From: Chiloscyllium plagiosum
Taxonomy: Eukaryota
DNA: 20,000 nucleotides
Reading direction: 5' to 3'
Assembly (NCBI RefSeq): GCF_004010195.1
Contig: NC_057756.1
Location: 7,500,246 to 7,520,245, forward strand
In this document: positions 2,190 through 20,000 of the stretch, in pieces
Numbering within the stretch: the stretch's first letter is position 1
How the letters are laid out: every line of letters starts with the position of its first letter
The notes under the pieces: model-generated
The model's database searches: none
Seen by the model: the letters and a program-made list of their open reading frames with translations, nothing else
Told to the model about the DNA's origin: nothing
Program-made: the position numbers and the translations under genes

Positions 2190-2413
2190 TGAAGTAGGAA
2201 GAATATCCCAGAGGATGAAGGAGCAGCAAAGTTCATGATTTTAGCTTAGAATCTACTGAGGGATTTCAAACCATTCCAGTGTAGCTATTTTTGCATGACT
2301 AGTGGGAAAAGAACATTGATTGAATGGAAACATTAAAACAAAGGTGTTTCATTTAATTAATTTTGAGTTCAGTGTAGGTAGAGGTAGGTGTAGTTCTCAA
2401 TAACTGGTGCTAT

Positions 2414-2720
2414 CAGAACCAAGGGCTCATAGGACAAGAAATAGATCATTTTGGACAAAGATAGCAAGTCATTTATTCACCCAGAGCATGGTGATACCAA
2501 GGAATCCTCTGCCAAAGAAAGTGGTTGATTCCAAAACTTTGGACGTTTTCAAGAAAGCAATCGATATATTTTTATTAAGCTAAAGTGATTAAAGGATGTC
2601 AGGAGAAAGCGGTGAGCAGAGTCCTGAATTGTATGATCGGCCATCATTAATATTGGGTTGTGAAGTAGATTTGAAAGACCGAATGGACTCACCCTACTCA
2701 TATATTGCATGTCTCTGTGT
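2414..2720 (+). mobile_element. Old CR1-type LINE 3' fragment
   Basis: Contains ttcacccagagcatggtg...ggaatcctctgcc...ttcaagaaagcaatcgatatattt and ends in gaccgaatggactcaccctactc, the typical CR1 3' end pattern. Boundaries approximate. Confidence 0.7.
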
Positions 2721-2859
2721 TTGATTGAGATGCCTCCGTAGAAGCAGCAGCACCTTATGAGCTTAAGCTGTTGTATTACTTTGGTTGTTTAGCTCAGGTC
2801 GCTGGATCTGTCAAACACAAGTATTGGTTTCAATCTCTGTCGGAGTTTGAAAGCTGGTA

Positions 2860-3117
2860 TTGATTTATGAAAATGACGGGCATTTTTTTCGTACAAATGG
2901 TGGTGTCTGTATGGAATGAGATGCCAGATGAGGTGATAGAGGCTGGGACAATTATAACACAGAACAGGCATCTGGATGGGTATATGAATATGATGTATTT
3001 CGTGGGATTTGGGCCAAGTGCTGGTAAATGAGACAAGGTCAGAGAGGGAGGTCTGGTCAGCATGAATCGGTTTGACTGAAGGGTCTGTTTCCGTGCTGAA
3101 CAACTGCATGATTTCTG
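2860..3117 (+). mobile_element. CR1/HER1-type LINE 3' fragment
   Basis: gtatggaatgagatgccagatgaggtgatagaggctgggacaatt...ggcatctggatggg...gactgaagggtctgtttccgtgctg matches the other CR1 3' ends in the window (5580-5785, 18030-18240). Confidence 0.85.
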
Positions 3118-3315
3118 CAATTCATTGCTCACAGGGATTGTTCTATCAATGAGTCACTAAGGGTATAAGCCTTCTCTTTGATATTTTCTTATGAAGTCAG
3201 AACGAAATAATTTGAATGCAACAGGGACTTAATATCTCGGTGGTAATATATTTTCCATAACAGGTTAGAAATACGAATGATGCAACTTTAACATTCCCTT
3301 GAGAATCTGAAAGAG

Positions 3316-3322
3316 TATAAAA
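3316..3322 (+). promoter_or_regulatory. Candidate TATA box of the GPCR gene
   Basis: TATAAAA starts 87 nt upstream of the likely ATG (3403), in non-repeat sequence. Positional inference only. Confidence 0.3.
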
Positions 3323-3402
3323 TGGTTTCTGAACACAGTAATACGATGTTCAACTCGAAGGTTTTGGTTTCACCACCCAGGATTAGAACTTTCACATGCA
3401 AA

Positions 3403-3469
3403 ATGCTGCAGTTGTTCACCATTGTTGATAAAGTATATTACATCACTATTGCTGCTATTGGCGTCCCTG
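3403..3469 (+). CDS. Coding exon 1 of a GPR139/GPR142-like class A GPCR (copy 1)
   Basis: gcaaaATG gives MLQLFTIVDKVYYITIAAIGVP + G, followed by a consensus donor G|GTAAGT at 3470. The phase-1 junction joins in frame to the acceptor at 6657 to complete TM1 (AAIGVPV-DTLAIVIL). In-frame upstream ATGs at 3322 and 3346 are alternative starts. Confidence 0.82.
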
Positions 3470-3477
3470 GTAAGTCC

Positions 3478-3828
3478 TTTTTTTATGATTCATTCATAGG
3501 ATGTGGGCATCGCCGGCTAGGCCAGCATTTATGGCTCAGAGGGGAGTTTAGGAGTCAGACACATTGCTGTAGGTCTGGAGTCGCATGTTGGTCAGACTAG
3601 GTAAGGATTGCACTTTCCTTCCCGAAAGGACATTAGTGGGCTAGACCGATTTTACCAAAAATCAACAATGATTCATGATTGTCATTAAACTTCTAATTCC
3701 AGATTTTTGTTTACGTTGAATTCAAATTCCATCATCTACCATAGGGAGTCAAATCTGGGTACCCAGTACATTATCGGGGTCTCTGGATTAATAGTCCAGT
3801 GATAATGTTGTGATGCAATTCCCTTCCC
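3478..3828 (-). mobile_element. tRNA-derived SINE (SlmI/MetaSINE-like), antisense in the intron
   Basis: The minus strand reads a decayed tRNA-like head (...ATTATCACTGGACTATTAATCCAGAGACCC...), a central CACTAATGTCCTTTCGGGAAGGAAAGTGCAATCCTTACCTAGTCTGACC block, and a tail GATGCCCACATCCTATGAATGAATCATAAAAAAA. The family name is from recall. Confidence 0.75.
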
Positions 3829-4036
3829 TTAGCCGAACTTTGAAAGTTGCATCAATCTGTGCAATGGAATGCCATGCGAACGTGCTTACAGTTTGCTCAA
3901 AGTATTTACCAATTGTTTTCACTGCAGGTCAGTTAGCGCTGCCATCATCGGACATGCATTATCAGGATTGTTGCAAGTTTTGACTGGAACTTAATGATAG
4001 GAGAATCTCTGTGAGCAGTAGATTGCAGCGATCGGA

Positions 4037-4080
4037 GACTCATAGAGTTATACAACACAGAAACACAGCCTCCAGTCAAG
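4037..4080 (-). mobile_element. Very short CR1 3' tail fragment
   Basis: catagagttatacaacacagaaaca is the reverse complement of the CR1/HER1 terminal tgtttc.gtgctgta..actctatga motif. Confidence 0.55.
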
Positions 4081-4087
4081 CCAGCTA

Positions 4088-4760
4088 TTAAAATGGTGGC
4101 AAGATAAGACACTGTAGTCAGACCGCCTGTCTCTCCAGTTCCTTTTCCTTGTCCTTCCTTTCTTGTCACCAGTTTGCAGTATTTTTTCACACACCCACCT
4201 CTCACCCCCGCCCAACCCTGAAACTTTTAGCTACCCCAGCTGGGGAATGGAGATGAGTCATGACTGGATACACGACAGGGGTGAGCAGGGACGAAGACAC
4301 GGAATGAATCCTCAGGTTACGGCAGTAGGAAATCTTTTTCCCAGAACGGCATGTGGGGAATCTTGACTCCCAGAGTGGTAAGCGGGGAATCCCAAGTTCC
4401 AGAGCAGCATGATGTGAAGCGTCACTAATCTTGTTGCTGCTGAGTGTCGGTGAAGGATTGGGCTGAATGTTGGAGAGATGGGGGACACTTGTGGGCCCTC
4501 GCACCATGTGCTGAGCTGCTGCTGTTGTAATGCTTTACCGGGCTGTAATGTAAACAGCTACCTCATTCCTAACTATACTCAGACACTGTCAGTAATGCTA
4601 CTGCTTCCCTTTTGAAGCTCTTTAGTATAATATCACTGTACTTTTTTTACTCTGTGCGATTTGTACTTGTACCAAAGATGGTATCATTAATTGGCAGCTA
4701 TTGTAAAATCTTTCCACTGTACTCCTGTACTTCTGTACTGGAGGATAAGTGACAACAAAG
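4088..4760 (+). mobile_element. Probable non-autonomous retroposon with an L2/Rex1-like 3' end
   Basis: GC-richer block that starts aaaatggtggc (decayed AAGATGGCGGC) and ends ctttccactgtactc...gtgacaacaaa (decayed GTGACAATAAA tail). No coding signal. Family uncertain. Confidence 0.45.
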
Positions 4761-4801
4761 GATATTAATTATGTATAGTTCTGTTGAGTTGATGACGTGC
4801 A

Positions 4802-7293
4802 AGGAAGACGTTTCCTTGCTTAACACATCTTATTCGAATTATCTTGTTGAACAATTAAGATTTCTCTTTTCAAAGAATAGTTTAGAGAAAGAAGCGCTAA
4901 TATTTCCTAATCTCAGTGAGTTACAGGATGCAGTAAAATGTGTTCACTAACACATCGCCAGTACTGAGGATGTTTTCCAGTCTTCAACATAATTAGTGAT
5001 TCGAAATGTAGTTTCCAAAAATGTAGATAAATATGAGGAGCTAAATTTTAAAAAGGCATATTAGAGCAGGACTTCTTCACTATTTGTCATGGGTCCTGAG
5101 GACTACTGCCTGGCAAACAGATCTTGGAATGCACGTACATAGTTCCTTGAAAGTGGAGTCGCTCATAGACAGGATAGTAAAGGAAGTGTTTAGTTCACTT
5201 GGCTTTAATGGGCCGTGCATTGAGTGTAGGAGTTAGGACGTCATGATGTGGCTGTACACAACATTGGTTCAGCCACTTCTGGAAAACTGCCATTATTCCT
5301 GTTCTCCCTGTGGTAGGAAAGATGCTGTTAAACCTGAAAGTGTTCAGAAAATATTTACAAGGATGTTAACAGGGACTGCAAGTCTGAGCTGTAGGGAGAG
5401 GCTGGATAGGCTAGGCTGTGTTCCCTGGAGCATCGAAGGCTGAGGGGCATGGATAGAGAGTGAATACTCAAGGACTTTTCCCCAGGGTAAGAGAGCCCAA
5501 AGTCTGAGGGCATTGGTTTAAGGTGAGAGGGGCAAGATTTAAAAGGGATCTAAGGTGCAACTTTTTCAAGCAGAGCGTGACGTGTGTATGGAAAGAGCTG
5601 CTAGAGGAAGTGGTGGAGGCTGGTACAAGTACAACATTTAAAAGGCATCTGGATGGGCAAATGCAAAAAAAGGTTTAGTGGGATATTACCTACATACTGC
5701 TAATGGGACTAGATTAATTTGGAATATCTGCTCAGCATGGATGAGTGGACTGAAGGGTCTGTTTCTGTGCTATTCTCAGAGTGACTGAAAGCAATTGCTG
5801 GAGTGTAGCATTGACAGCTGGTTGTGTGCAAAGAGAAAATAAACCATTTGTAAGAACAAGTTAAAATATATACTTTCTCACTTGAAAGAATTCTTCGTTT
5901 TGTCTTATCCTTTGTTAAATTGTTCGATCCATTGACAGCTCTGCTTGGTTATCTTGATGTTCATCAGTGGTTTCATTTGTCTAACAGCAAATTTCAGTTT
6001 CTCAATGGATATCCTTCATCTGTCCAAATCCCAACATCAGATCCACTTGTTGATTGGGTGTGGATCTGATATCTTTTTGCAGGTGCCAATGTTGTCATAT
6101 TCTTGTCAAACATTGTTTAATAAAGTGTCTGTCCTGTAAGGCAGGATTATGACATGTAATGTTCTCAGAGCCATGATTCTGGGCACTATGTTTTTAATAC
6201 GGATATCATTCTATGTCAGCTTGCAATGTGAACATGTGAAAATGAGCCCTTGTAATATTTACATCCGTAACTCTTTGGCTGGGAGAATAGCTTCGTTAAT
6301 TGTTTAGAACACAGAAGTGAAATGGACAGTTTGCTATCCTGCTCATATTTCTGATCTTCCATTCATGGAATGATGTCAGTTAAGCTGATACAACATGTGC
6401 AACCTGATTCTGCACACAGCAGTAACATATTCCACTGACCACTTTCCACCAACATCGCGATTTTGCAGTACTTCATTTTGAACACCGTACACCCACTCCC
6501 TTTGTTTACTGGATGCAGCTAAACATGCAATGGAATCAGGATGAAAATTATTTTTACATTTCAATATTCTTCCTGACTGCCCTAATGTCTTCTCGATTCA
6601 AATAGAAACCTGTTTGACGTACAATTACAAAACTAATTTCAGTTTTCTTTCTTACAGTTGACACATTGGCAATTGTAATCCTGTCTCAAGGAAAATGCGG
6701 CCTCTCCAGACGCACTACTCATTACCTGGTCGCCATGGCAACAGCGGACCTGATGTTCATCATCACTGACGTTATATTGTATCAACTAAATCAGTACTTT
6801 TACCAGGGATCATTCCTATATCTTACACCTGCATGCATTGTGATTCACTTCCTGGTTTATGTGAGTTCAGACTCTTCTGTCTGGTTCACTGTCACTTTCT
6901 CCGCTGATCGGTTTGTGACCATTTGTTGCCGGAAACTGAAACTGAAATATTGTACAGTGAAAACAGCAAATGTTATTCTTTCAACAACCTGCATTCTTTT
7001 CTCTCTAAAAAGTATTCCCATTGTCATGACACGGGAAACTATGATTGTGGTTGACAATGTACATTGGTCTTGTCAAATTAAGGACAGCTATTACACAGAA
7101 CTCGGGTGGATAGTTTATGACTGGTTTCAGAAGGTGTTAACACCATTACTCCCATTCAGTTTAGTTTTACTCTTCAATGCATTGACAGTCAGATACGTGT
7201 TAGTGGCGAATCGGATCCGTAAAAGATTGAGGAGTCAGAACACGGAAGAGAAGTGCAGCGATCCTGAGATGGAGAGCAGAAGGAAGTCAATGA
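4802..7293 (+). repeat. Segmental tandem duplication unit A (3' part of the intron plus exon 2), paralogous to 17136-19757
   Basis: Colinear similarity from tccttgcttaacacat (4813 vs 17148) through the shared CR1 fragment, unique intron sequence, the acceptor and the exon up to agaaggaag.caatgat. Confidence 0.93.
5003..5785 (+). mobile_element. CR1/HER1-type LINE 3' fragment in the intron
   Basis: Encodes decayed LYTTLVQPLLENC...ESVQKIFTRML...RERLDRLG. Ends in gactgaagggtctgtttctgtgct. Confidence 0.88.
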
Positions 7294-7568
7294 TTTTACT
7301 GTTCACTATATCGGGTAGCTTTATATTGTTGTGGTCACCCTATGTGATAATTTTCATATATTATCAAATTGCAGCACTTGATCCCAAATATTACAACAAT
7401 AGTTTGCATGTATTTGAAAGAATTGGATACATGCTGCTAAGTTTGAGTTGCTGCGCAAATACGTTTATTTATGGAGTAACTCAGTCAAAGTTCCGGGAAC
7501 AGTTCATTCGCTCTGTAAAATACCCACTGACTGCAATCAATCGAGTCTTTACTTTTAGAATGAATTGA
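6658..7568 (+). CDS. Main coding exon 2 of a probable G-protein coupled receptor 139-like (rhodopsin family 7TM) gene; spliced product 325 aa
   Basis: Uninterrupted ORF with hydrophobic TM segments: TM2 YLVAMATADL, Cys at the top of TM3 (TPAC), SVWFTVTFSADRF (DRY-like), ECL2 Cys (WSC), TM5 LTPLLPF...N, TM6 FILLWSP, TM7 SCCANTFIY (NPxxY variant) and helix 8 SKFREQF. The GKCGLS..T.YL and SVW.TV...DRF signatures fit the GPR139/GPR142 group. Confidence 0.93.
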
Positions 7569-8386
7569 TTTAGATCTTTAAGACAGTGCCACATACGACT
7601 GTTTTCCTAAGTGTAGCATTGAATAGTAAATGTCAATGACATTATTTGTATCAAGAATGTTGGGTCATATGAAATTATTAACAGCATTCCATTCAATTAG
7701 ATGTTACTTTGATTTGTATTTATAATACTGAGACAAGATTTTTAATCTTCACTTGATGGAAGCGTAACAAACCATTTGTTCAAGAAAGCAGCCACAGACA
7801 CAGAGGAAAATCTCCAACAAATCGACAGTCAGAAGTGAATTAAGCAGATTGCATTCCATCAAAGAGGTCGCACCGAATTTAACCACGGGGCCCCTCATTA
7901 GTGTTAGCAGTGAATTGCAAACGAGTCCACTCACATTCTGTCTGCTCCATTTCAGTTTTGTTTTGCAAAAACCTTACCTCTCATTTCATTTACCTCAGAA
8001 ATGATCTGTTAGTGTCCGAAATTATGTTATTATTGAACAGCTCAGACACGAAACAGAAATCAGGATTGCTTGTTCATGTTTATTTCCTTTCTCATTTAAC
8101 GTGGTCGGCTTTCAGTGAAAGATAAGTCTGCAACTCTGCACAATTGGTTTTAATAATGAAAAAGGACAGGATTAAAGTCAATGAAAATAATGAGAAAGTA
8201 TCTGTGCTCTTCACATACAAGAAAGTTTAAAAAATTTCAAAGGATATGACAAAAATATTTTGCCATTTCGCTTTACTGTACTCAAATGAGAGAGTTTCGT
8301 TCTGTGCAACATCTATAGCTCTGACTTAGCTGCTTCTTTCACTTCCTGTTCTTGGTACTTTGTTAAACTGCCTTTTGATTATCACA

Positions 8387-8694
8387 CAACGGTGACTCAG
8401 TGGTTAGCACTGATGCCTCACAATGAGAAGGACACGGGTTCAATTCCTGCATCGGGCAACTGTGGAGTTTGCACATTCTCCCCGTGTCTGCGTGGGTTTC
8501 CTTCGAGTGCTCCGCTTTCCTTCCACAATCCAAAGATGGTCAGGTCAGGTGAATTGCCTATACTGTTAGTTGCATTAGTCAGTGGTAAATAGAAGATAGG
8601 GTCTTGGATCTGGGTGGGTTACTTTTCAGAGGGGCGGTGTGGACTTGTTGTGCTGAATGGCCTGTTTCCACACTGTAAGGAATCTAATCTCAAA
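8387..8694 (+). mobile_element. HE1-type tRNA-derived V-SINE
   Basis: A box TGACTCAGTGG (8393-8403), B box GGTTCAATTCC (8437-8447), V-domain tgtggagtttgcacattctccccgtgtctgcgtgggtttcc, LINE-derived 3' end ggcctgtttccacactgta and an (ATCTA)n tail. Confidence 0.92.
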
Positions 8695-8912
8695 ATACTT
8701 AGCAGCAAAGGACCAGACCTGATTTGTAACCAAAGATCTCTGGCCTGGAATTTTCACATTACTACACTTGTAGTAGGATAACAGTTTCAAACTGTTCTGA
8801 ATGAATTCTTGCCTGGAAGCAAATCTGTTTCAAACTTACCTTCTTCCAGGCTCTGTGAACTGCCATCAATGCCACACATGTTACGTTTCTCATTTCACAA
8901 GAAAATCTTGTT

Positions 8913-9138
8913 ACAGATTCAATCAATAAGCACATCGACCTGGACCCAATATACCGACCACTGCAACGGAAAGCTGGAACTGACAACCGGAAGCGGCAGA
9001 TTCAAACCACTATAAATGCCGGAGGAAAGATCACAGAAGCGCTTCACAGGGAGGCTCCCAAGCACTGAGGATGTCACCTAGACAGGGGACAAAACGTCTG
9101 CAACACATATTCCCATCTCGGCGAACACATCCACAACA
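8913..9138 (+). mobile_element. Penelope-like element 3' end / pseudo-LTR fragment
   Basis: Translates TDSINKHIDLDPIYRPL, resembling the C-terminus after the PLE GIY-YIG domain. Carries a hammerhead-like motif. Same family as 10660-10743 and 19885-20000. Confidence 0.75.
9062..9101 (+). ncRNA. Degenerate minimal type I hammerhead ribozyme motif
   Basis: GCA-CTGAGGA-T-GTCACC-TAGACA-GGGGAC-AAAA-CGTC-TGC: stem I GCA/TGC, core CUGANGA, stem II, palindromic ACGT stem III and a GUC site. GAAA is mutated to AAAA. Confidence 0.7.
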
Positions 9139-9139
9139 T

Positions 9140-9323
9140 TCTCCTTTAGGATCAATTCTAACAATTTTGCCTTAAGAGTCACCAGGCTAACTAACCTACA
9201 TTTCCTGCTTTCCATAACCTTCCCTTCTTCAAAGAAAAACTTAGTTACTTTGTAATCTCATTGAACCTTCCCAGATTTGGTTCTGAATTTTAGAATATTG
9301 ACACCAACACATCTATTATCTCA
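9140..9323 (-). mobile_element. Old CR1 RT fragment
   Basis: The minus strand contains aggttagttagcctggtgactcttaaggcaaaattgttagaattgat, a decayed R.VSL....KLLE motif. Confidence 0.55.
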
Positions 9324-9344
9324 TGAGTTAGTGAGAACATGGCG

Positions 9345-9500
9345 TCACAGAACTGCACAGCATGGAAATAAACCCATTAGTCCAACTCATCCGTGCCAAG
9401 CAGATATGCAAAATTAATCTGGTCCTATTGGCCAGCATTTGACCCATATGCCTCTACCCCCTTCCTATTCTTGCACCCACCCAGATGCCTTTTCAACGTT
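9345..9500 (-). mobile_element. CR1/HER1-type LINE 3' fragment
   Basis: Reverse complement of the 3' end seen at 5635-5775 (cagcatggaaa...gtccaactcatcc...cccagatgccttt). Confidence 0.85.
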
Positions 9501-9672
9501 CTTTTAACAGGTTGCATTGGTTAATTCGAGCCACAATTTCTAATTTTCTATGACTTTGACTTAATCAGCACTGACCGACTGAATTGTCACCGACTCACAC
9601 ACAGACAGTCACAGCCTGAGTCCCCTCTGCTGGGGACTGTACATGTTTACACACACAAACTCACACACACAC

Positions 9673-9878
9673 CTTCAGAGAGGACAGTATCGCAGTATCC
9701 CCTTATTGTACATGCCACTTACCCAGCTAGCTCAATACCAGCTCCTTGAGTGAGTAGACCCCCTGATGCTCTTGTTTATGTCAGTCAGTCAGGACTTACT
9801 GTTGAAACAGGTTAACACCCCCAATCAGGGAATTCATATTCTGAGATCCACCTGGCTGACTTTGTTCCAATAACCACA
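9673..9878 (-). mobile_element. Probable decayed solo LTR (Gypsy-type)
   Basis: The minus strand starts TGTGGTTATT...GTCAGCCAGGTGGATCTCAGAATATGAATTCCCTGATTGGGGG, with TATA-like CATAAA and polyA-like AATAAG. It resembles a common shark LTR (recall). The 3' CA end and TSD were not resolved. Confidence 0.5.
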
Positions 9879-10659
9879 ATCGGCCTGCCTCTGTCTTCAT
9901 TGGATAACTGTAGTTTTGTTCAAAATAAATTCATTAAAGACAACTGATTATTTGAGCTCTTTGTCCTCAATGCGACATAGAAAAGTGTCCAATTGACCGT
10001 ATCAGAACAAGATAAAACAATTCCATTTTACTGTGACATCAGAGAGTAAGATGGCCTTCCTACCTGTATTCCCACTACCGTTCTGGTATTACCTTCCCTT
10101 AGAGAAATAGGAACTCAATTGAGCATGAATATGAAATTATCTTTAAATTGCAAAGCAAAGCAATTGTTAAAGAATACTGTATGTCAGTCACAAAAGGAAC
10201 ATGTTTATAAAGAACTAGGATTTATGAAAGGCCAAAAGTATTTCATGGTAGGATTCACCCCGAAACCGTGGCACTGAACCCTACGTAGAAATAATATGAT
10301 AGAGAATCAAAAGTCAACCTTAAACATAGTCCCAAAAGAGAGATTGACAAAGAGAGTTCTGAGACATGCACCTTTAACGATTAAGGAGTCAGCAATGTTG
10401 CAGATTCAGTTGTTGCTGAAAATCTTTAACACAAAGTGCATTTTTGTAACTTTCTAACCAGAGGGTGATGGACACTGATTCACATCATACACACGAGACA
10501 CGTGCAATCTGATGTTGGACAAAGAGGTGGTCATGGTATCATCGGTATGTTACAATGTGGAATTAAAGTCATAATCTTATCAGCTTTGGGCTTAGTCAAT
10601 ATCGGTATAGCCTTTAGATTTCAGATGACCTACCCCTACTGACTCATATGGCCAGATGT

Positions 10660-10743
10660 ACGTTTGCAACACAAATTCCCAGCTCGGCAAACAGACCACA
10701 ACAACGAGCACCCGAGCTACAAATCTTCTCACAAACTTTGAAC
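10660..10743 (+). mobile_element. Penelope-like terminal fragment (sequence downstream of the hammerhead)
   Basis: acgtttgcaacacaaattcccagctcggcaaacagaccacaac aligns to 9094-9137 and 19981-20000 and extends further 3'. Confidence 0.75.
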
Positions 10744-10759
10744 CTGAAGGAGAATCTCA

Positions 10760-10900
10760 TTGGAAAACTTGGGAAGAGTCAGCTGGAATTTTTGAAATGG
10801 AGATTAATTTTAGTCAACTCCCCAGAATTGTTTGAATGTGTTACGTTTGCTATTGATAAAGGGGAGCTCATTGATGTATTTCATTTGGATTCCAAGGTCA
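10760..10900 (+). mobile_element. Old CR1 RT fragment
   Basis: Translates to ...ELFECVTFAIDKGELIDVFHLDSK, a decayed EFFE.VT..VDKG..VDV.YLDF.K motif. Confidence 0.7.
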
Positions 10901-13891
10901 CTGTACAAGAAGGACGAGTTGCACCTGAACTGGAGAAGCACCAATATCCTGGGAGGGAGGTTTGCTGGAGCTCTTTGGGATAATTTAAACTGGATTGGCA
11001 GGAGCTTGGGAACCTGAGCTATGGACCTGATAATGGATTAGGTAGTGAACAGTTAGATATAGCGTGCAGAGAGTCTGTGATGAGGGATCGGCACTTGATA
11101 GGGCTACGGTGCAGTCAGTGTGATGGAATAAGTGTGGTGAACTAAGCGCACAGATCAGTATTAGGACATATGATGTTTTGGCCATTACGGAGACTTGGAT
11201 ATTACAGTGGTAGGAATGATTGTTCGATATTCCAGAGTTTAGATGTTTCAAAAGGAATGGGGGTGGGGGCGTGGAGGTAAAGGAAGTGAAGGGGTGGCAT
11301 TGCTAATCAGTGAGAGTGTTACTGCTGTCGAAAGGGAAGTCGTCGAAGACGATTGAGTATGCGTGGAAGTCAGAAACTGGAAAGGAGCAGTCACTTAATT
11401 TGGAGTTTTCTCCAGGCCCTCCTATAGCAACAGAGAGATGGAGGAGCAAATTGGGAGGCAGAAATTGGAAAGGTGCAGATGTAATAGGGTTGTTGTCTTG
11501 AGTGACTTTAACTTCTCTAATATTGATTGGAACCTATTAAATTCAATTAGTTTGGATGGAGCAGTTTTTGTCAGTGTGTCAAGGAAGGATTTCTGACACA
11601 ATATTTAGATAGGGCAAGTAGAGGCGAGGCCAATTTGGATTTGGTGTTTGGCACCGAACAGGCCAGTTGGCCCACCTCTCGGTGGAAGAACATTTCAGTG
11701 ACAGTGATCACCACTCCCTGACCTTTGCTGCAGTCAAGAAGAGGGTCAGGGGAAAATGGTATGAGAAAGTAATTGGGTGTGAGGGAATTTCAATGCTAGT
11801 AGGCAGGAATTGAGGCACCTAAATTGGGAACAAATGTTCTAAGGGAGATGGACAACAGAAATGTGGAGGTTGTTTAGGAAGCATGTGCTGATAGTGCTGG
11901 GCAGGCTTTTCTCACTGAGGCAAGGAAGGCATGATATTTTGAAAGAAACTTGGATGACTTGGAATGAGGAACATCTCGTCAAGAGAAAGAAAGGAACTTA
12001 CTTAAGGTTGAGGAGGCAAGAATCAGACAAGGCTTTAGAGGGTTACAGGGTAGCCAGGAAGGAACTGAAGAATGGACTTAGGAGAACTGGAAGGGGGCAT
12101 GAAAAAGCTTTAGTGGATAGGATAAAGAAAACCCTAAGGCATTCTACACTTATATGAGGAACAGGAGGATGGTCAGACTTGGGGAAGGCCGGATCGGAGG
12201 TAGTAAAGGGAACTTGCTCTTGGGATCAGAGGAAGTAGGGGGAGGTCCTTATTGAATGTTTTACTTTAGTATTCACTACTGAGTGAAACCTTGATGCTTC
12301 TGAAGAGAGCATGAAACAGACTGCTATGCTCAAATAGATTGATGTACTGAAGAAGGATGTACTGAAAATTTTGAAAAATATCAAAATAGATAAATCTCCT
12401 GGACCAGATGTCATCTATCCAAAGTTTCTACAGGAAGACAGAAAAGAGATTGTTGTGCGTTTGGAAATGATTTTTTTGTGTCCTCACTGTTCACTGGAGT
12501 AGTGCCAGATTGGCAACTATTATTCCCTTATTCCAAAAAGGGAATAGGGATAATCCTGGCAATTACGGACCAGTCAGTCTAACTCCAGTAGTGAGCAAAC
12601 TATTGGAGAGGATTCTGAGAGAAAGGATTTATGGTTACTTGGAAAACCGCAGTTTGATTTGAGATAGTCAGCATGACTTTGTGAGGGGCAGGTCATGCCT
12701 CACAAACGTTAGTGAATTCTTTGAAATGTGACAAAACACATTGTTGAAGATAGAGCAGTGGATGTGGTGCCCATGAGATATAGCAAGGCATTTGCTGAGG
12801 TTTTTCATGGTAGGCCTATTCAGAAAATAAGGAAATTTAGCTGTCTGGATACAGACTTGACTGGCCGATGGTGGTAGGAGATGGAAAGTATTCAGCGTGG
12901 ATCTCAGTGACAAGTGGTGTTTCACTGGGACCTTTGCTCTTTGTGATTTTTATAAATGACTTGGATGAGAAAGTGGAAGGGTGGGTTAGTAGTTTTGCCG
13001 ATAACACGAAGGTTGGCTAGTGTGGAGGGTTGTTTTAGGTTGCAACCGGACATTGAGAGAATGCAGAGCTGGGCTGATAACTGGCAGATGGAGCTCACCC
13101 TGGAAAGGTGTGAAGTGATTCACTTTGGAAGTTAAAATTTGAATGCAGGGTTAAAGGCTGGATTCTTGGCAGCGTAGAGGAATAGAGGAATCTTGGGATC
13201 TACGTCTAAAGAGCCCTCAAAGTTGCCACTCAGATTGATAGATTTGTTCCAAAGGCCTATGGTGTGTTGGCTTTCACTAGCAGGGTGATTGAGTTCAAGA
13301 GCCGTGAGGTTATGCTGCAGCTCTAAAGAGCTCTGGTTAGACCACACCTGAAATATTGTGTTCAGTTCTGGTCGCCTCATCATAGGAAACATCTGGAAAC
13401 TTTAGAGAGGGAGCAGAGGAGATCCAGGATGCTGCTTGGACTGGAGGGCATGTCTTCTGAAGAAAGGTTAAGGGGCCAAAGCTTTTCTCATTGGAGCAAA
13501 GAAGAATGAGATGTAACTTGATAAAGATGTACAGGATGTTAACAGCCATCGATAGAGTGGATAGGCAGTGACTTTATCGCATGGCAGAAACGTCCATCAT
13601 TCGGAGCATGGTTTAAGGCATTTGAAGGAATGTTTAGGGCAGATGTTTGCAGTCAGTTCCTTGCACATAAATTAGTGCGTGCATGGAATGCACTGTCAGT
13701 AGTAGTAGTAGTAGTAGAGTCAGATACATTAGGGGCATTTAAGCAAATCTTGGATAGGCACACGGGACATAGTACAATGAATGGTATGTAGCTTAGTCTG
13801 ATCTTAGAGCAGTATGAACGGATGGCACAACACTGAGTGCCCAATGACCAGTACTGTGCTGTACCGTTCTCTGTTCTATGTTCTGTGTTCT
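10901..13891 (+). mobile_element. Long decayed CR1 LINE: end of ORF1 esterase, APE endonuclease, RT, 3' UTR and tail
   Basis: LYKKDELHLNWRSTNILGGRFA (SGNH esterase DxxH block), AITETW (~11181), DFNFSNIDW (~11503), SDH (11703), KSPGPD (12392), NY.PVSLT, FADNTK (12994), VRPHL.YCVQFWSP and a (GTTCTAT)n-like tail at 13866-13891. Confidence 0.93.
13698..13717 (+). repeat. (AGT)n microsatellite inside the LINE
   Basis: agtagtagtagtagtagtag, 6 full units plus AG. Confidence 0.9.
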
Positions 13892-15262
13892 TAGCTGAAG
13901 CCCAACGGGACTTCAAACAGGCACTACAACTTGAAAATGCGGCAAGTGGACCATTTGAGTTCCAGGGTATTCTGACACAAGTGGACATCCTCAGTAGGAC
14001 AACTGAGCTTGGGGGACACCACTTAAGTGAAAGTATTTGCATAGCGTCACTAAGGAGATATCCTGAACAGAGGGTCATCAGGTCAGCCCACATCAAAATC
14101 CCGAAACAAAGCCAAGTCCTGATCAAATTTTCTCAACAATCCAGGCCAGCAGGCCATTGTAGTTGCTGCTGGTATGCGAACTTGAAGATTCTGCACTGCC
14201 TGAATTAAACAAGAGAGCTCACAAGCCAGTATACAGAGTAGTGCACACCCTGGAACGTTCACCTTTAGCTGGTTTTGAACAGTGAAATTGTGTTGCAACA
14301 ACCAAATCAGAACCCCAACAAAATAAACGTCTAGCTAAATGGTCTCCAGTTCTCATGGACTTTGAAACAAATGTGCTTTTTTCAGTCTTGAACAAAATTC
14401 GCTCTGGACTCAAATCCTTAAGACCTTGGCCAGACTGAGAGTCTATGCTGGGAAACCTTTACAGACAAAGGGAACAACTTTGATTCTGGTCTGTTATGAG
14501 AAGCAACTGGTTCATTTCGCATTGGTTGTAGTAAAAGGCTCGGGCCCAAGCCTGATGACCCTGATTTTTTGAGAAACTTTCAAATGAATTAGCTCAACAT
14601 TTTTCGACTAGAATATGCTGGCTGAATGAAGTCCTTATTAATACCCAGACGTTTCTCAGGAAAATCGAGGAACTGTCAAACGGGTGTAGGGCACCTTATA
14701 TGTTGACCAGGAAACAAATCCATGATTCTGCAAGTCCCACGCAGTGCCATTTGCCTTACGGGCAAAAGGAGAGGCAGAAATCCAGGAAGTTGGAAAGGGA
14801 AGGAAGATTGAACCTGTCTACTTTGCAGAATGGGCAGCACTGGCCTACTGATTGTGAAGCCCAAAGGGTTGTTTTGTGATTGTGGGGATTTAAAGCAAAG
14901 TGTAGACTGCTTTTCACAGCTGGCTGAATACCCAGCCTTGTGCGTACTGGGCTCATATGAAAAACTGGCAAGAAGTTGTTCCTTCACAAAACTGGATGAT
15001 CCATGTGTACAAGTGGTTAGATGAGGAATCCCAGATGTATGCAACAATTCATGCCCATAAAGGTTTGTACTAATATACGAGACTGCCATCAGCCTGTGCC
15101 ATTTTCCAACTGACAATGGAGAGCATTTTCCTAGAGATACCCCAAGTCTGCATTTATCTGGGTAATGTGTCAAGAAAGAGAAAAATCAATAAAGTGCACT
15201 GAGAGAACTTGGAAACGACGCTTAAACATTTCTCCAAGTTGAGTGCACATTTCAGGAAGGAA
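13892..15262 (+). mobile_element. Decayed Gypsy/Ty3 LTR-retrotransposon internal region (gag, protease, RT)
   Basis: Gag-like LAEAQRDFKQALQLENAASG, protease-end VVKGSGPSLM (~14527), and RT motifs VPFALR, EWAA (14828), IVKP...CGDLK, FTKLD, HKGLY.YTRLP, AIFQ.TME and YLGN in place of YLDD (15155-15166). Confidence 0.85.
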
Positions 15263-15279
15263 GGTATCCGTATAAATAA

Positions 15280-16440
15280 CATCCATTGACTTACTTCTGC
15301 CCACCAGCATTGTCACCTCTTTAATACTGAACTTTGCAGGCGTGACCTAACCTCTATGAATCTATGCTGACTCTCTCTGATTAGCAGGCATTTTTGAAGC
15401 GATTGTTACCCTACTCTTGATTACAGATTCTAACAATTTCCCCATCACAGAAGTCAGGCTGACTCATCTGTAATTCCCTGGTTTCAATCTGTCTCCCGTC
15501 TCAAAGAGTGGAATGACATGAGCAAATTTCCAAATCCAGAGGTACAACTACTGAATCCAGGGAATTCTGAAACATTATGGTGAGGACATTGGCAAAATGT
15601 TCTCCTACCTCCTTTAATGCCCACAGATGGAAGCCATCAGAATTTGTCATCTACAATTCAATTCATTTCATAGAAGATCATAGAATCTCGCCAGTGTGCA
15701 ACCAGGCCTTTCGGCTCAACAAGTCCACACCGACCTTCTGAAGAGTAACCGATCCAGACCCATTCCCCTACCCAATGACTCTCCATTAACCCCTCATTAA
15801 TGCACCTGACCTGCACATCACTGAATACTGTGGGCAAAGTAGTGTGGGCAATTAACTTAAACTGCTCATTTTTGGATTGTGGGAGGTAACTGGAGCACAC
15901 AGAGGAAACCCACGCAGACACCGGAAGAATGTGCAAACTCCACACAGGCAGTGGCTCGGGGCTAGAATCAAGCCTGGATCCCTCACGCTGTGCTGCAGCA
16001 GTACTAAACACTGAGCTGCCGTGCTGCCCCATTTCCCCATTACTGATGATATATTTTTGCTGATTTTATTGAGATATTGCCCTGATCTTCTATTACTTAC
16101 TGTGAAACTTCCAGCAGACTACCCTTCTTTTCTGGTCTCAATCCTGAAACAAATTAATCGTTCAGCATGTCTGCTATTTCAACACTATCATTGAAAATAT
16201 CCCCACTCTCAGCCTTCAGTGGGGACCAGCATTAATCTAAGCAGCTGCATTCCCTTTCTCTAACCAGAAAATCATTTCTTACTGTATTTTACATTCTGTG
16301 GATATTTCCTTTCATCATCCTTTTTAGCTGATCTGATAAACTGCTTTGTGACCTACCATGTCAATCCATATCTTTGTCACTTGCTGTGGGACGTGGTGAT
16401 GGTTCTCTGTGTTTTTTTTCATTTTATGCTGCTCTTGACT
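15280..16440 (-). mobile_element. Decayed CR1 ORF2 fragment, interrupted by an HE1 SINE
   Basis: The minus strand gives DGFH..LKEVGE, FQNSLDS.VVPLD, VIPLF, KPGNYR.VSLTSVMGKLLESVIK (15400-15640). Weaker linker-region similarity continues at 16040-16440. Confidence 0.75.
15670..16029 (-). mobile_element. HE1-type tRNA-derived V-SINE
   Basis: The minus strand starts GGGCAGCACGGCAGCTCAGTGTTTAGTACTGCTGC, has the V-domain TGTGGAGTTTGCACATTCTTCCGGTGTCTGCGTGGGTTTCC and the tail GATTCTATGATCTTCTAT. Candidate TSD CATTTC at 15664-15669 and 16030-16035. Confidence 0.92.
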
Positions 16441-16623
16441 TGTTTGATCTGGAAGGGTTAGTGCACTGCAGAAATGATGGAACAGTTGCTAAAGACGAAT
16501 GATGAATGGAGATATTATTTCTAAATATTCGTTGCAATTCTCCCACTGTTAGCTTTTTTCTAAAAAAAAAACTTGCTACGCACAGTATTTATCTTTGAAA
16601 GATAGTGCTGTTGTTTTTTTATT

Positions 16624-16860
16624 GAGTAGAGGAGATTGAGAGAGGATATGATCGAAGTGCATAAAATTATAAGGGGCATGGACAGGGTTGATAGGAAAAA
16701 CATTTTCTCCTTCATGGTGAGATCAATGTGCAGGGGCATAGACTTAAGTGAGGGGCAAAGGTTATTAGAGGAGATGCGAAGTAAACACTTGGTCGCATTC
16801 AGGGTAGATGGAATTTATAAGAATGTTACCAACACTGGACAGCTTGAATTTTAAGGAGTG
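16624..16860 (+). mobile_element. CR1 3' fragment
   Basis: RRLREDMIEVHKIIRGMDRVDRK, the CR1 ORF2 C-terminal motif. Confidence 0.8.
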
Positions 16861-16866
16861 ACTGGA

Positions 16867-17135
16867 TAGAGTCAGAGCCAGAGTCATACAGCATGAAAAC
16901 ACGGGACCTTTTTCCCTGAAACTTTGGAGGCTGAGTGGAGACCCTTTTGAGTTCAATAAACTCATGAGGGGCATGGAAAGGTTGAATAGGCAAGGTCTTT
17001 TCACCAGGGTAGGGGGTGTTCAAGGTAGAGGGCATAGGTTTAGGGTGAGAGGGGAAAGTTTTAAAAGGGACCTAAGGATGAACGTTTTCACGCAGAGGGT
17101 GGTGCATATGTGGAATGAGCTGCCAGAGGAAGTGG
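16867..17135. mobile_element. Antisense CR1 tail (16867-16902) joined to a sense CR1 3' fragment (16903-17135)
   Basis: agagtcatacagcatgaaaaca is a reverse-complement tail. It is followed by MRGMERLNRQGLF...RGHRFRVRG..FKRDLR.NVFTQRVV..WNELPEEV on the + strand. Confidence 0.75.
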
Positions 17136-17607
17136 AGGATGATGATGTCCTTGCTTAACACATTTAATCCCTCCTTTTTTTGTTGAACAGTTACAGGGTT
17201 TTTCTTTCAAAGAATAGTTTACAGCAAGAAGCGCTGATATTTCCATTCTCAGCGAGTGACATGAATGGAAAGCAGTGAAATCCATTCACTAACATATTGC
17301 TAGTACTAAGGATGTTTTTTCCGGTTTTCAACGTAATTAGTGATTTGAAATGTACTTTCCAGAAATTTAGACAAATGTAACAAGTTTTGGAAAGGCAAAT
17401 CGGGACAGGACTTCTACACTTAATGGTAAGGTCCAGAGGGCCGTTGCCAAACAAAGAGACCTTGGGGTACAAGTTCATAGTTCCTTGAAAGTGGAGTCAC
17501 ACGTTGACAGTATAGAAAAGCAGATGTTTAATACACTTACCTTTTTTGGCAGTGCGTTAGTATAGGAGTTGGGATGTCATGTTGTGGCTGTACAGATGTT
17601 GGTTCGG

Positions 17608-17710
17608 GGAGAAAGTGAGGACTGCAGATGCTGGAGATCAGAGCAGCAGGTCAGGCAGCATCCAAGGAGCAGGAGAATCGACGTTTCGGGCATAAGCCCT
17701 TCTTCAGGAA
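17608..17710 (-). mobile_element. Short non-autonomous Penelope-derived (retrozyme-like) element with a 9-bp TSD
   Basis: Flanked by perfect TTGGTTCGG direct repeats (17599-17607 and 17711-17719). Absent from the paralogous site (single ttggttcag at 5264-5272). Carries a hammerhead motif. Confidence 0.88.
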
Positions 17711-17711
17711 T
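17676..17711 (-). ncRNA. Minimal type I hammerhead ribozyme motif with intact catalytic core
   Basis: Minus strand ATTC-CTGAAGA-A-GGGC-TTAT-GCCC-GAAA-CG-TC-GATT: CUGANGA, a perfect 4-bp stem II, GAAA, a palindromic ACGU stem III and a GUC triplet (predicted cut between 17680 and 17679). Confidence 0.85.
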
Positions 17712-19145
17712 TGGTTCGGCCAATTCTAGAAAATTACGATCAATTCTGCTCTCCCTGCTCCAGGAAAGATGGTGTTAACTTTGAAAGTGTGCAAAAAAGA
17801 TTTACAAGGATGTCGCCGGTGTTGGAAAGTCTGAGCTACAGGAAAAGGCTGGATAGGCTGGGGTTTTTCTTCATGGAGCACCGAAGGCTGAGGGGCATGG
17901 ATAGAGTGACTGGTCAAGGTATTCCCTCCAGGGTGAGAGAGTCGAAATCTAGATGGCATTGGTTTAAGGTGAGAGGGGAAGGGGTTAAAAGGGATTCTAG
18001 GGGCAACGTTTTCATGCAGAGGGAGATGCATGTATGGAATGAACTGCCAGATAAAATGGTGGAGGCCGGTGCAAATTCAACTTTTAAAAGGAATCTGGAA
18101 GGGCACATCAGCAGGGTGATTTGAGAGGAATATTGGCTAAATTCTGCAAAATGGGACTTGATTAATTTAGGATATCTGTTCAGTGTGCACGAGTTGAACT
18201 GAAGGGTCTGGTCCCCTGCTGTACATCTCAATGACTCTAAGTGACTGAAAGCAATTGTTGGGGGCTTGGGGTACAGAATAGACAATTGGTTGTGTACATG
18301 GAGAGAGCAAACCATGTGCAAGACCAAGTTTAAATATATACTTTCTCGTATGAAAGAATTCTTTATTTCTCTTATTTTGAAGGCAGCCTTTGTTAAACTG
18401 TTCAATCACTTGACAGCTTCATTTGATTATAGTTATGTTCATCAATGGGTTCATTTATCTTACAGCATATTTCAGTTTTTCAGTGGTTATCCCACTGTCC
18501 TTCATGCGGCCAATCCCAAACCATAGGTCCACTTGTTGATTAGTGTGTGAATATGGTCTCTTACCACGAGTGCTGCTGTTCTCATATTCCTGTGGGACAT
18601 TATTAAGAATGCGTCTGTCCTGTAAGACATGATTATTTAATGTAATGGTGTCAAATTCATGATTCTGAACATCACATTTGTAATGTGATGTCATTCAATG
18701 TCAGCTTGCATTGTGATCATGTTAAAATGAGTCCTTAGAACATTTAAATCCAAAGCTCCTTGGCTAGAAGGACAGCTTGGTTAATTGTTGAGAACACAGA
18801 AATACAGTTTTATACCTTGTTCATTTTTGAAATATTCTTCCATTAACAGAATGATGCGCATTAAGCCAATAGAACATGTTCAATCTGATTTTGTATACAA
18901 TATGTTTTAGTAACATATTCAACTGACCAATTTACACCTACATAGAGATGTTATAATCCTTCATGTTCAACACCACGAACCCATACTCTTTGTTCATATG
19001 ACACAGCTTAATATGGGATGGAAACAGTATTAAAATTCCTTTTACATATTAATATGCTTCCTGATAGCCCTAATGCAATCTCGACTCAAATGGAAGACTG
19101 TTCAAACTGCAATTGCTAAACTAATTTCAGTTCTCCCTCTTACAG

Positions 19146-19757
19146 TTAATGCACTGGCAATTGTAATTCTGTCCCTCAGAAAATGCGGCCTCTGCAGATG
19201 CAATACTCATTACCTGCTGGCCATGGCAACAGCGGATCTGATGTTCGTCATCACTGATGTCATATTGTATCAACTGAATCAGTACTTTTACCAGGGATCA
19301 TTCCTGCACCTCACACCTGTATGCATTGTGATTCAGTTCCTGCTTTTAATGAGATCTGACTGTTCTGTCTGGTTCACTGTCACTTTCTCCGCTGGTCGGC
19401 TTGTCACCATTTGTTGCCGGAAAGTGAAACTGAAATATTGTACCGTGAAAACACTAGCTTTTCATTCTAAAAAAATGCTTCCATTTTCATAACACAGGGA
19501 CCCATGATTGTGGTTGACAATGTACAGTGGTCTTGTCAAATGAAGGCCAGCTGCTATACAGAAGTCGCACGGATGGTTTATGACTGGTTTGATTAGGTGT
19601 TAACACCATTACTCCCATTCAGTTTAGTTTTGCTCTTCAACGTTATGACAGTCAGATACGTTTTAGTGGTGAGTCGGATCCGTAAAGGATTGAGGAGTCA
19701 GAACATGGAAGAAAAGCGCAGTGATCCTGAGATGGAGAGCAGAAGGAAGGCAATGAT
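19146..19757 (+). pseudogene. GPR139-like GPCR pseudogene (copy 2, exon 2)
   Basis: Acceptor ttacAG at 19145. Highly similar to copy 1 (VNALAIVILSLRKCGL...AMATADL). DRF is changed to GRL. 30 nt of TM4 are replaced by CTAG (19454-19457) and there is an extra A in the run at 19469-19475, giving TAA at 19490. In-frame TAG at 19594-19596. Interrupted by a retroelement at ~19758. Confidence 0.92.
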
Positions 19758-19878
19758 AGAACATAGAACATAGAAGAATACAGCGCAGTACAGGCCCTTC
19801 GGCCCTCGATGTTGCGCCGATCCAAGCCCACCTAACCTACACTAGCCCACTAACCACCATAAGCCTATCCAATGCCCG
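19758..19878 (-). mobile_element. Young 5'-truncated CR1 3' end inserted into the pseudogene exon
   Basis: agaacatagaacatagaa is the reverse complement of a (TTCTATG)n tail, followed by cagtacaggcccttcggccc. CpG-rich. Confidence 0.85.
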
Positions 19879-19884
19879 GATAGG

Positions 19885-20000
19885 GAGGGACAGACCACTG
19901 TAAACACCGGAGGAAACATCAAAGAAGCGCTTCGCAGGAGGCTCCCAAGCACTGACGATGTCGCCTAGCCAGGGGACGGAACTTTTGCAACAAAAACTTC
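19885..20000 (+). mobile_element. Penelope-like terminal fragment with a degenerate hammerhead (19949-19988); runs off the window
   Basis: accactgtaaacaccggaggaaacatcaaagaagcgcttcgcaggaggctcccaagcactgacgatgtcgcctagccaggggacggaac aligns with 9006-9095. Confidence 0.8.

Follow-up and report, generated by a model that had tools for sequence, protein, structure and literature searches.

The 20,000-nucleotide stretch of the Chiloscyllium plagiosum genome analysed here (contig NC_057756.1, positions 7,500,246 to 7,520,245; hereafter the window) carries two paralogous genes for class A G-protein-coupled receptors (GPCRs), an intact gene 1 and a broken gene 2. By comparative analysis this pair is almost certainly assigned to a large receptor expansion in the cartilaginous fishes. 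Judging from where the sequences vary, the family is likely to represent a diversified ligand repertoire, with a conserved scaffold around a variable pocket. The whole account, including a chemosensory use of the family, is put forward tentatively, as slightly short of an even chance.

A large receptor family in cartilaginous fishes

The family was collected by comparing the protein encoded by exon 2 of gene 1 with 2,216 candidate clusters (90% identity), 1,738 of which matched at E<=1e-10. The best 120 of these 1,738 all come from sharks, representing 11 species; RefSeq names 118 of them GPR139 ("probable GPR139") and two capa-receptor-like. Heterodontus francisci (horn shark) accounts for 69 of the best 120, and these 69 clusters are spread over 21 contigs, two of which, of chromosome size, carry 23 and 12 of them. 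The 1,618 further matches are presumably also chondrichthyan for the most part. At 50% clustering, 103 representatives pass 1e-30, and of the 21 in-clade representatives sampled for species (out of 64 full-length) 20 are sharks, rays, skates or Callorhinchus and one is nameless.

Subfamilies are common to sharks, rays and chimaera, and two chimaera sequences fall in different subgroups of the expansion in a quick tree, which suggests that the expansion began before the holocephalan/elasmobranch split and thus predates the separation of sharks and chimaeras. Clustered paralogs, lineage-specific subfamilies and a pseudogene, the marks of a birth-and-death multigene family, were all found, as counted in other species. 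The lineage-specific, clustered birth-and-death family that a preceding sequence-only reading of the window had proposed is thereby borne out by cluster counts, clustering on contigs and the pseudogene.

One family model, P0162 from Chiloscyllium punctatum, has a coiled-coil piece fused upstream of the receptor, and the cluster of this piece includes a RING-type protein. It is probably a mis-joined model beside a TRIM-type gene.

Variation is concentrated at the ligand pocket

Helices were numbered from their motifs, and 40 ligand-accessible positions were fixed beforehand from a general class A list. We measured the mean BLOSUM-based variability of these pocket positions, of the other helix positions in the extracellular half, and of those in the intracellular half; the resulting p-values assume independent positions and make no correction for common descent. 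For the 69 horn shark paralogs the three means are 2.62, 1.08 and 0.69, a pocket-to-extracellular ratio of 2.43 (p 5e-4). A similar picture is given by 13 sawshark paralogs (2.10, 0.89 and 0.48; ratio 2.36, p 0.003) and by 65 diverse representatives (4.26, 2.80 and 1.93; ratio 1.52, p 4e-4). In contrast, 20 orthologs of an amphibian relative, described below, show the opposite direction (0.18, 0.75 and 0.78; ratio 0.24, p 0.001), although their mean identity (77%) is similar to that of the horn shark paralogs (74%). For 93 orthologs of a second related subtype the values are 1.31, 1.51 and 1.51 (ratio 0.87, p 0.57). On this general list, the pocket is thus variable among paralogs and kept among orthologs of the apparently single-copy relative. 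A first run, with the poorly annotated start of transmembrane helix 1 (TM1) in the control, had given p-values of 0.017 (BLOSUM) and 0.11 (entropy) for the horn shark; TM1 positions 1.33-1.45 were dropped afterwards.

The most variable helix positions (3.33, 2.61, 3.29, 7.39, 3.32, 7.43, 7.35 and 3.36) are all invariant in the amphibians, and without exception the 120 relatives of gene 1 have W6.48, D2.50, D3.49 and C45.50. A six-residue pocket string occurs in 66 variants among the 69 paralogs and in a single one among the 20 amphibians; this string and a 16-position "core pocket" set were chosen post hoc and are not counted as tests.

Relationship to GPR139 and to other orphan subtypes

In the wide sense the family belongs to the GPR139/GPR142-related orphan group, and by sequence no characterised receptor is closer to it than GPR139. 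In PDB, gene 1 matches human GPR139 best (43 bits, 22% identity); the family profile scores 95.7 bits against it and 77.8 bits against the next receptor. By sequence, the neurotensin receptor and GPR139 are the nearest solved structures.

These matches, the RefSeq name carried by 118 of the best 120 relatives, and the presence of two exons in both genes (PMC7318219) would agree with gene 1 being the shark ortholog of GPR139 (or GPR142), sensing L-Trp/L-Phe, next to a recent local duplicate. This explanation can hardly be correct. Human and zebrafish GPR139 share 70% identity (PMC7318219), far from the 22% of gene 1, and two orphans, from amphibians and coelacanth, score higher, at 128 and 107 bits. 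The Trp/Phe agonist pocket of GPR139 is formed by E108, F109, H187, W241, R244 and N271 (PMC7318219), of which gene 1 retains one of six by a hand count on the alignment, the corresponding residues being V, Y, Q, W, Y and Y. Neither the sequence conservation nor the agonist pocket of a GPR139 ortholog was thus found in gene 1. The sequence-only reading was right to keep the gene apart from the true GPR139 ortholog, but an inherited sensing of aromatic amino acids (Trp/Phe) is not supported by this pocket comparison. Its GPR139/GPR142 link holds at the level of the wider group and fails for the nearest relative, which is a different orphan subtype. Across the family, five of the six places are variable. 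C3.25 is found in 117 of 120 members and its disulfide partner C45.50 in all 120; at the place of C3.25 a cysteine is missing from human GPR139.

In Foldseek searches with the structural model of gene 1, C3aR came out on top and GPR139 in sixth place, all with E-values in a small range; the top rank of C3aR was rejected as evidence for an immune role.

The best non-shark matches are orphans of salamander (128 bits) and coelacanth (107 bits) and a teleost protein (98 bits), and the next-nearest invertebrate matches are sex-peptide-receptor-like. The salamander protein (P0218) matches 25 of 1,675 candidates, namely 20 amphibian clusters, one from sturgeon (46%) and four shark or skate members of the family (32-33%). 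The amphibian/sturgeon orphan (P0218, P0284-P0303) has one cluster per amphibian species listed, is in amphibians 66-74% identical to P0218 and 25-28% identical to gene 1, and carries the RefSeq label "probable GPR139". No one-to-one conserved shark counterpart of this amphibian/sturgeon orphan was present among the 1,675 candidates (best 33%), and no amniote or teleost member among the 25 matches of the salamander protein. Apparently it is a conserved single-copy gene, distinct from GPR139. S1.50 and N2.50 replace the usual N and D in the amphibian proteins, and their invariant pocket (F3.33, W6.48, K6.51 and N7.39) is close to the chemistry of GPR139.

The coelacanth protein defines a second subtype (P0230, P0318-P0435) with 145 matches in fishes, amphibians and reptiles. 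Sharks have conserved orthologs of this subtype, at 60-66% and outside the expansion; R6.51 is found in 93 of 93 sequences of the subtype, and W6.48 is absent. Two of its models are annotated as TMEM183A isoforms, which suggests that TMEM183A is a neighbour of the second-subtype gene.

Trees were built without GPR139 or GPR142 sequences, none having been returned by the searches. The expansion joins the amphibian/sturgeon subtype with support of 99/98 in a 38-row mixture-model tree and 98/98 in a 28-row tree, and its grouping with the second, coelacanth-type subtype is rejected by the approximately unbiased test (p-AU 0.008). Support for monophyly of the expansion ranges from 81/77 to 89/73.

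Proposed role and competing explanations

Searches and trees show that an orphan subtype related to GPR139/GPR142 gave rise to this class A GPCR family by expansion in the cartilaginous fishes, and that the same subtype persists as the conserved, apparently single-copy gene of amphibians and sturgeon. The family turns over by local duplication and loss, gene 2 being a dead copy. Its copies retain one G-protein-facing surface and the disulfide between TM3 and extracellular loop 2 (ECL2), and change the residues that line the ligand pocket; together they would most likely detect many different ligands via one signalling route. As the most likely use we propose a chemosensory one. In the nose, skin, gill, mouth or gut, each cell might express one or few copies, with environmental peptides or small metabolites as candidate ligands and a Gq/Go-phospholipase C route as the predicted output.

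A short N-terminus, a nearly single-exon layout, clusters and pseudogenes are typical of chemoreceptor families. Chemosensory use is ranked first because the layout and dynamics of the genes match such families and because the recognised repertoire is small: in cartilaginous fishes the known olfactory receptors (ORs) are reported to number only 20-62 per species, although sensory neurons are plentiful (PMC10869828). Go and TRPC2 are both present in shark olfactory neurons (PMC10116579), and GPR139 couples mainly to Gq/11 (PMC7318219). A bolder version is doubtful: here the vertebrates would have one more olfactory or chemosensory receptor family of independent origin, which outnumbers the combined recognised chemoreceptor families of sharks and of which each cell in the olfactory rosette expresses one or few copies.

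Several points weigh against this account. The set of 40 pocket positions was defined by a general class A list and our own generic numbering rather than by model coordinates. Cluster counts are not gene counts and may slightly overstate the family, as P0002 and P0003 differ by one residue and yet form separate clusters. The sister relation to the amphibian/sturgeon subtype reaches only 81 in a quick 26-row tree, and a grouping of the two bony-vertebrate-containing subtypes with each other is not rejected (p-AU 0.095). Gene 1 itself has five private changes at positions that are at least 90% conserved, including N1.50D, and may be functional or under relaxed constraint; at least five such changes, the count of gene 1 or more, are found in 14 of 120 relatives. 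The catshark nose is described as served mainly by V2R/OlfC receptors (PMC10116579), and OR expression in catshark is seen in places other than the nose (PMC11979771), so that the type of a family does not predict its tissue; some catshark V2R genes are expressed in testis or rectal gland (PMC11979771). Finally, the same sequence signature would fit immune or barrier receptor families equally.

An immune or barrier repertoire would resemble the MRGPR or formyl-peptide receptors, with copies on leukocytes, mast-like cells or sensory nerve endings that sense microbial or damage peptides. Pocket-focused diversification and gene turnover are explained equally well in this way, and a peptide-receptor-type ECL2 hairpin with its disulfide would suit peptide ligands. 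MAS1 and related receptors are reported to be lacking in cartilaginous fishes (PMC8455134), leaving such a role vacant, and the coiled-coil fusion of P0162, with the RING-type member of its cluster, is a weak hint of a TRIM-type neighbour. However, the nearest solved structures by sequence are not chemoattractant receptors, and a GPR139/GPR142 label is absent from the four searched supplementary files of a shark immune single-cell atlas (PMC11372145), a weak argument as gene naming there is unclear. We consider an immune or barrier role unlikely, without being far-fetched.

The receptors might instead recognise diversified endogenous or conspecific peptides (reproductive, pheromonal or neuroendocrine) and continue the peptide-receptor role of the wider GPR139/MIP/FMRFamide group. 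We know of no matching expanded peptide family (no search for one was made), which counts against this explanation, and receptors with a fixed endogenous ligand conserve the pocket, which is seen here in the orthologs of the amphibian and of the second subtype. Thus we regard it as improbable, even though the next-nearest invertebrate matches are of the sex-peptide-receptor type, peptides that have an aromatic C-terminus activate receptors of the wider group (PMC8557429), and some shark V2R genes are testis-enriched (PMC11979771).

The receptor pair in the window

The features of the two genes are collected in Table 1. The spliced open frame of gene 1 has 978 nt and encodes a class A GPCR of 325 aa. 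Its first 23 residues are the same as in the RefSeq models P0001, P0002, P0003 and P0005 from Hemiscyllium and Chiloscyllium (bamboo shark), so that the exon pairing has been modelled independently; over exon 2 the identity to these proteins is 81-85%. Both the very short N-terminus and the location of most of the seven-helix region in one exon, noticed in the sequence-only reading, are confirmed by this exon anatomy.

Table 1. Features of the receptor pair, in window coordinates
Feature	Position	Strand	Evidence
Exon 1 of gene 1, coding from the ATG through a short N-terminus to the middle of TM1 (followed by a phase-1 intron)	3403-3469 (67 nt)	+	GT donor, open spliced frame
Gene 1 intron, with interspersed repeat fragments	3470-6657 (3,188 nt)	+	Splice sites, repeat matches
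Gene 1 coding exon 2 (remaining TM1 to helix 8 and stop)	6658-7568	+	AG acceptor; open reading frame (ORF) 6618-7568; Pfam 7tm_1
Copy A of the duplicated block (3' part of intron and exon 2 up to TM6 start)	4813-7294	+	blastn, 76-77% identity to 17148-19757
Remnant of the gene 2 intron (homologue of 4813-6657), with intact AG acceptor at its end	17148-19145	+	blastn, alignment
Gene 2 pseudogene, exon 2 relic (TM1 to TM6 start)	19146-19757	+	tblastn, 76% and 73% in two frames
Loss of 25 nt that shifts the frame within gene 2 TM4 (gaps of 17 and 8 in the alignment, which do not place it precisely)	19462-19469	+	Alignment
Premature in-register stop (TAG) within gene 2 TM5, where gene 1 reads AAG	19594-19596	+	Alignment
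Interspersed-repeat sequence interrupting gene 2	19758-20000	.	Within-window repeat matches

Class A membership of gene 1 is supported by Pfam, by the fold of its model with the Foldseek matches, and by a tally of class A motifs (D2.50, DR at 3.49-3.50, C3.25-C45.50, W6.48, P6.50 and N7.49/Y7.53). The only Pfam match is 7tm_1 (E 7e-25); at the same cut-off (E<=0.01) gene 1 did not match the OR, TAAR, V1R, V2R or T2R profiles. The AlphaFold2 model of exon 2, based on an 83-row alignment, has a predicted local distance difference test score of 87.9 and contains the helix bundle, an ECL2 beta-hairpin and helix 8. Residue 24 of gene 1 (window 6660-6662) changes N1.50, which is N in 114 of 116 relatives, to D, and this substitution may impair folding or signalling. 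Upstream of exon 1 there is a candidate TATAAA at 3316. An N-glycosylation sequon in ECL3 (gene 1 residue 269) is shared by 91 of the 120 relatives, and no sequon occurs within the short N-terminus of gene 1.

In a single-cell RNA run (X7; tissue not given), sampled at about 2%, 1,205 reads matched 3200-8400 at 85% likeness, 1,186 of them partially and mostly at intron repeats; depth in exon 2 bins was 0-1.6, and this sample contained no joints across the gene 1 intron. Summed contig depth in exon 2 bins was 96-3,608 (X1) and 275-1,990 (X2), while the non-repeat bins 5984-6505 and 7550-8071 had 8-33; it was very high over 3374-4069 and 5114-5809, in the region of gene 1 exon 1 and intron. The exon 2 values are compatible with many paralogs, although such depth does not give a copy number.

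Gene 2 lies on the same strand, its exon 2 starting 12,488 bp past that of gene 1, and the likeness of the two blocks (4813-7294 and 17148-19757) is far above chance. In gene 2 the shifted frame stops at TAA 19490-19492, and D3.49 is replaced by G. Its homology to gene 1 ends at 19757 because an interspersed repeat starts at the next position; TM6-TM7 may lie beyond the window end. Within this repeat sequence, 19758-19823 matches 13820-13884 in reverse (79%) and 19891-19992 matches 9003-9105 (85%). Neither local alignment (best score 55, versus 44-62 for shuffles) nor the family profile revealed an exon 1 of gene 2 in 7569-20000. The pair of same-strand paralogs 12.5 kb apart, one intact and one pseudogenised, is therefore as first described, with frameshift, stop and repeat insertion as the lesions.

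Over 185 codons the pair has dN 0.099, dS 0.215 and dN/dS 0.46, the pseudogene being included, and 668 of 868 aligned positions of the non-repeat intron are identical (distance 0.275). We counted 23 derived amino-acid changes in gene 2, 13 in gene 1 and one ambiguous, and the branch lengths are 0.17 and 0.089, respectively. These values contradict the rapid divergence first ascribed to the pair; it is an old duplication under purifying selection followed by decay of one copy. In the tree, both genes fall in a polytomy with bamboo- and zebra-shark copies. The window pair is a routine intact-plus-pseudogene cluster, an ordinary case of family turnover; the window includes no flanking gene.

A mostly neutral expansion, driven by repeat-mediated segmental duplication in slow, repeat-rich genomes, with copies that decay and have no repertoire function, would account for the repeat-rich locus, for the dead gene 2 lacking a detected exon 1 in the window, and for the unusual substitutions in gene 1. 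It is already weakened by the dN/dS value, low even with a pseudogene included, by the subfamilies shared among sharks, rays and chimaera, and by the concentration of variation at the pocket with the intracellular side held, and is considered distinctly improbable.

Repeats in the window

Two long, decayed, G-rich stretches occupy 1-2170 and ~10890-13830. Their translations resemble motifs that we take to be those of a CR1-type long interspersed element (LINE) reverse transcriptase; none of eight ORF pieces in and around these stretches matched Pfam. Stop-interrupted frames at ~14800-15250 resemble, in their motifs, the reverse transcriptase of a long-terminal-repeat retrotransposon. Inverted copies (67%) of a repeat resembling short interspersed elements (SINEs) lie at 8396-8675 and 15692-16015. 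The short repeat copies at 9003-9105 and 19891-19992 have a hammerhead-like core by eye; Rfam gave no matches, this repeat included.

Literature and significance

The chondrichthyan family is apparently undescribed. No description of the expansion was found among titles and abstract starts of the open-access literature, subscription papers not being covered, and passages of PMC10620051 and PMC12361510 hold nothing on it. GPR139/GPR142 labels are absent from the supplements of PMC11806052 (one file) and PMC12361510 (11 readable of 12 files), and the 24 supplementary files of PMC8455134 contain one orthogroup label. Cartilaginous fishes are described as GPCR-poor, and their small number of ORs goes together with large noses (PMC8455134, PMC10869828). 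Standard expansion pipelines can drop families of >100 copies (methods of PMC12361510), and such a filter may have hidden this one.

The closest part of the family in the horn shark, 69 clusters among the best 120, already exceeds the 20-62 known olfactory receptors, and the RefSeq name GPR139 is misleading for its genes. If the family proves to be olfactory, the view that sharks smell with only 20-62 receptors would be overturned. What else the shark nose or skin expresses becomes a question testable on existing RNA-seq data. Whatever the tissue, the single-copy relative in frogs and salamanders offers a route to the ancestral ligand.

Comparison with known systems

The shark family shares with GPR139 and GPR142, the mammalian L-Trp/L-Phe receptors, two coding exons (PMC7318219), a short N-terminus, W6.48 and a similar TM1-TM3 layout, but differs from GPR139 in having many copies per genome instead of one conserved gene. 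With the amphibian/sturgeon orphan it has in common the length class, the disulfide and the motif at the end of intracellular loop 3; the pocket is invariant in that orphan and varied in the shark family. Rinne et al. 2019 named GPR139/GPR142-related orphans of coelacanth, gar and other fishes GPR210A/GPR210B (PMC6504862). The coelacanth-type second subtype (P0230 and 144 more) broadly fits the description of these receptors, and the main text of that study mentions neither sharks nor an expansion (PMC6504862).

The next matches, at 23-30% identity, are the protostome MIP, sex-peptide, FMRFamide and myosuppressin receptors and the nematode Srw receptors, which represent an independent invertebrate expansion. 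The Srw receptors, an expanded family of nematodes, are frequently regarded as chemosensory. The protostome MIP, FMRFamide and myosuppressin receptors are placed as the sister of the GPR139/142 group (PMC8557429). In its genomic behaviour the shark family is similar to the OR, TAAR, V1R/ORA, V2R/OlfC, T2R and MRGPR/FPR families, sharing clusters, pseudogenes, lineage-specific subfamilies and a variable pocket on a conserved scaffold. It has no homology to these families beyond class A (7tm_1 only) and is of separate origin.

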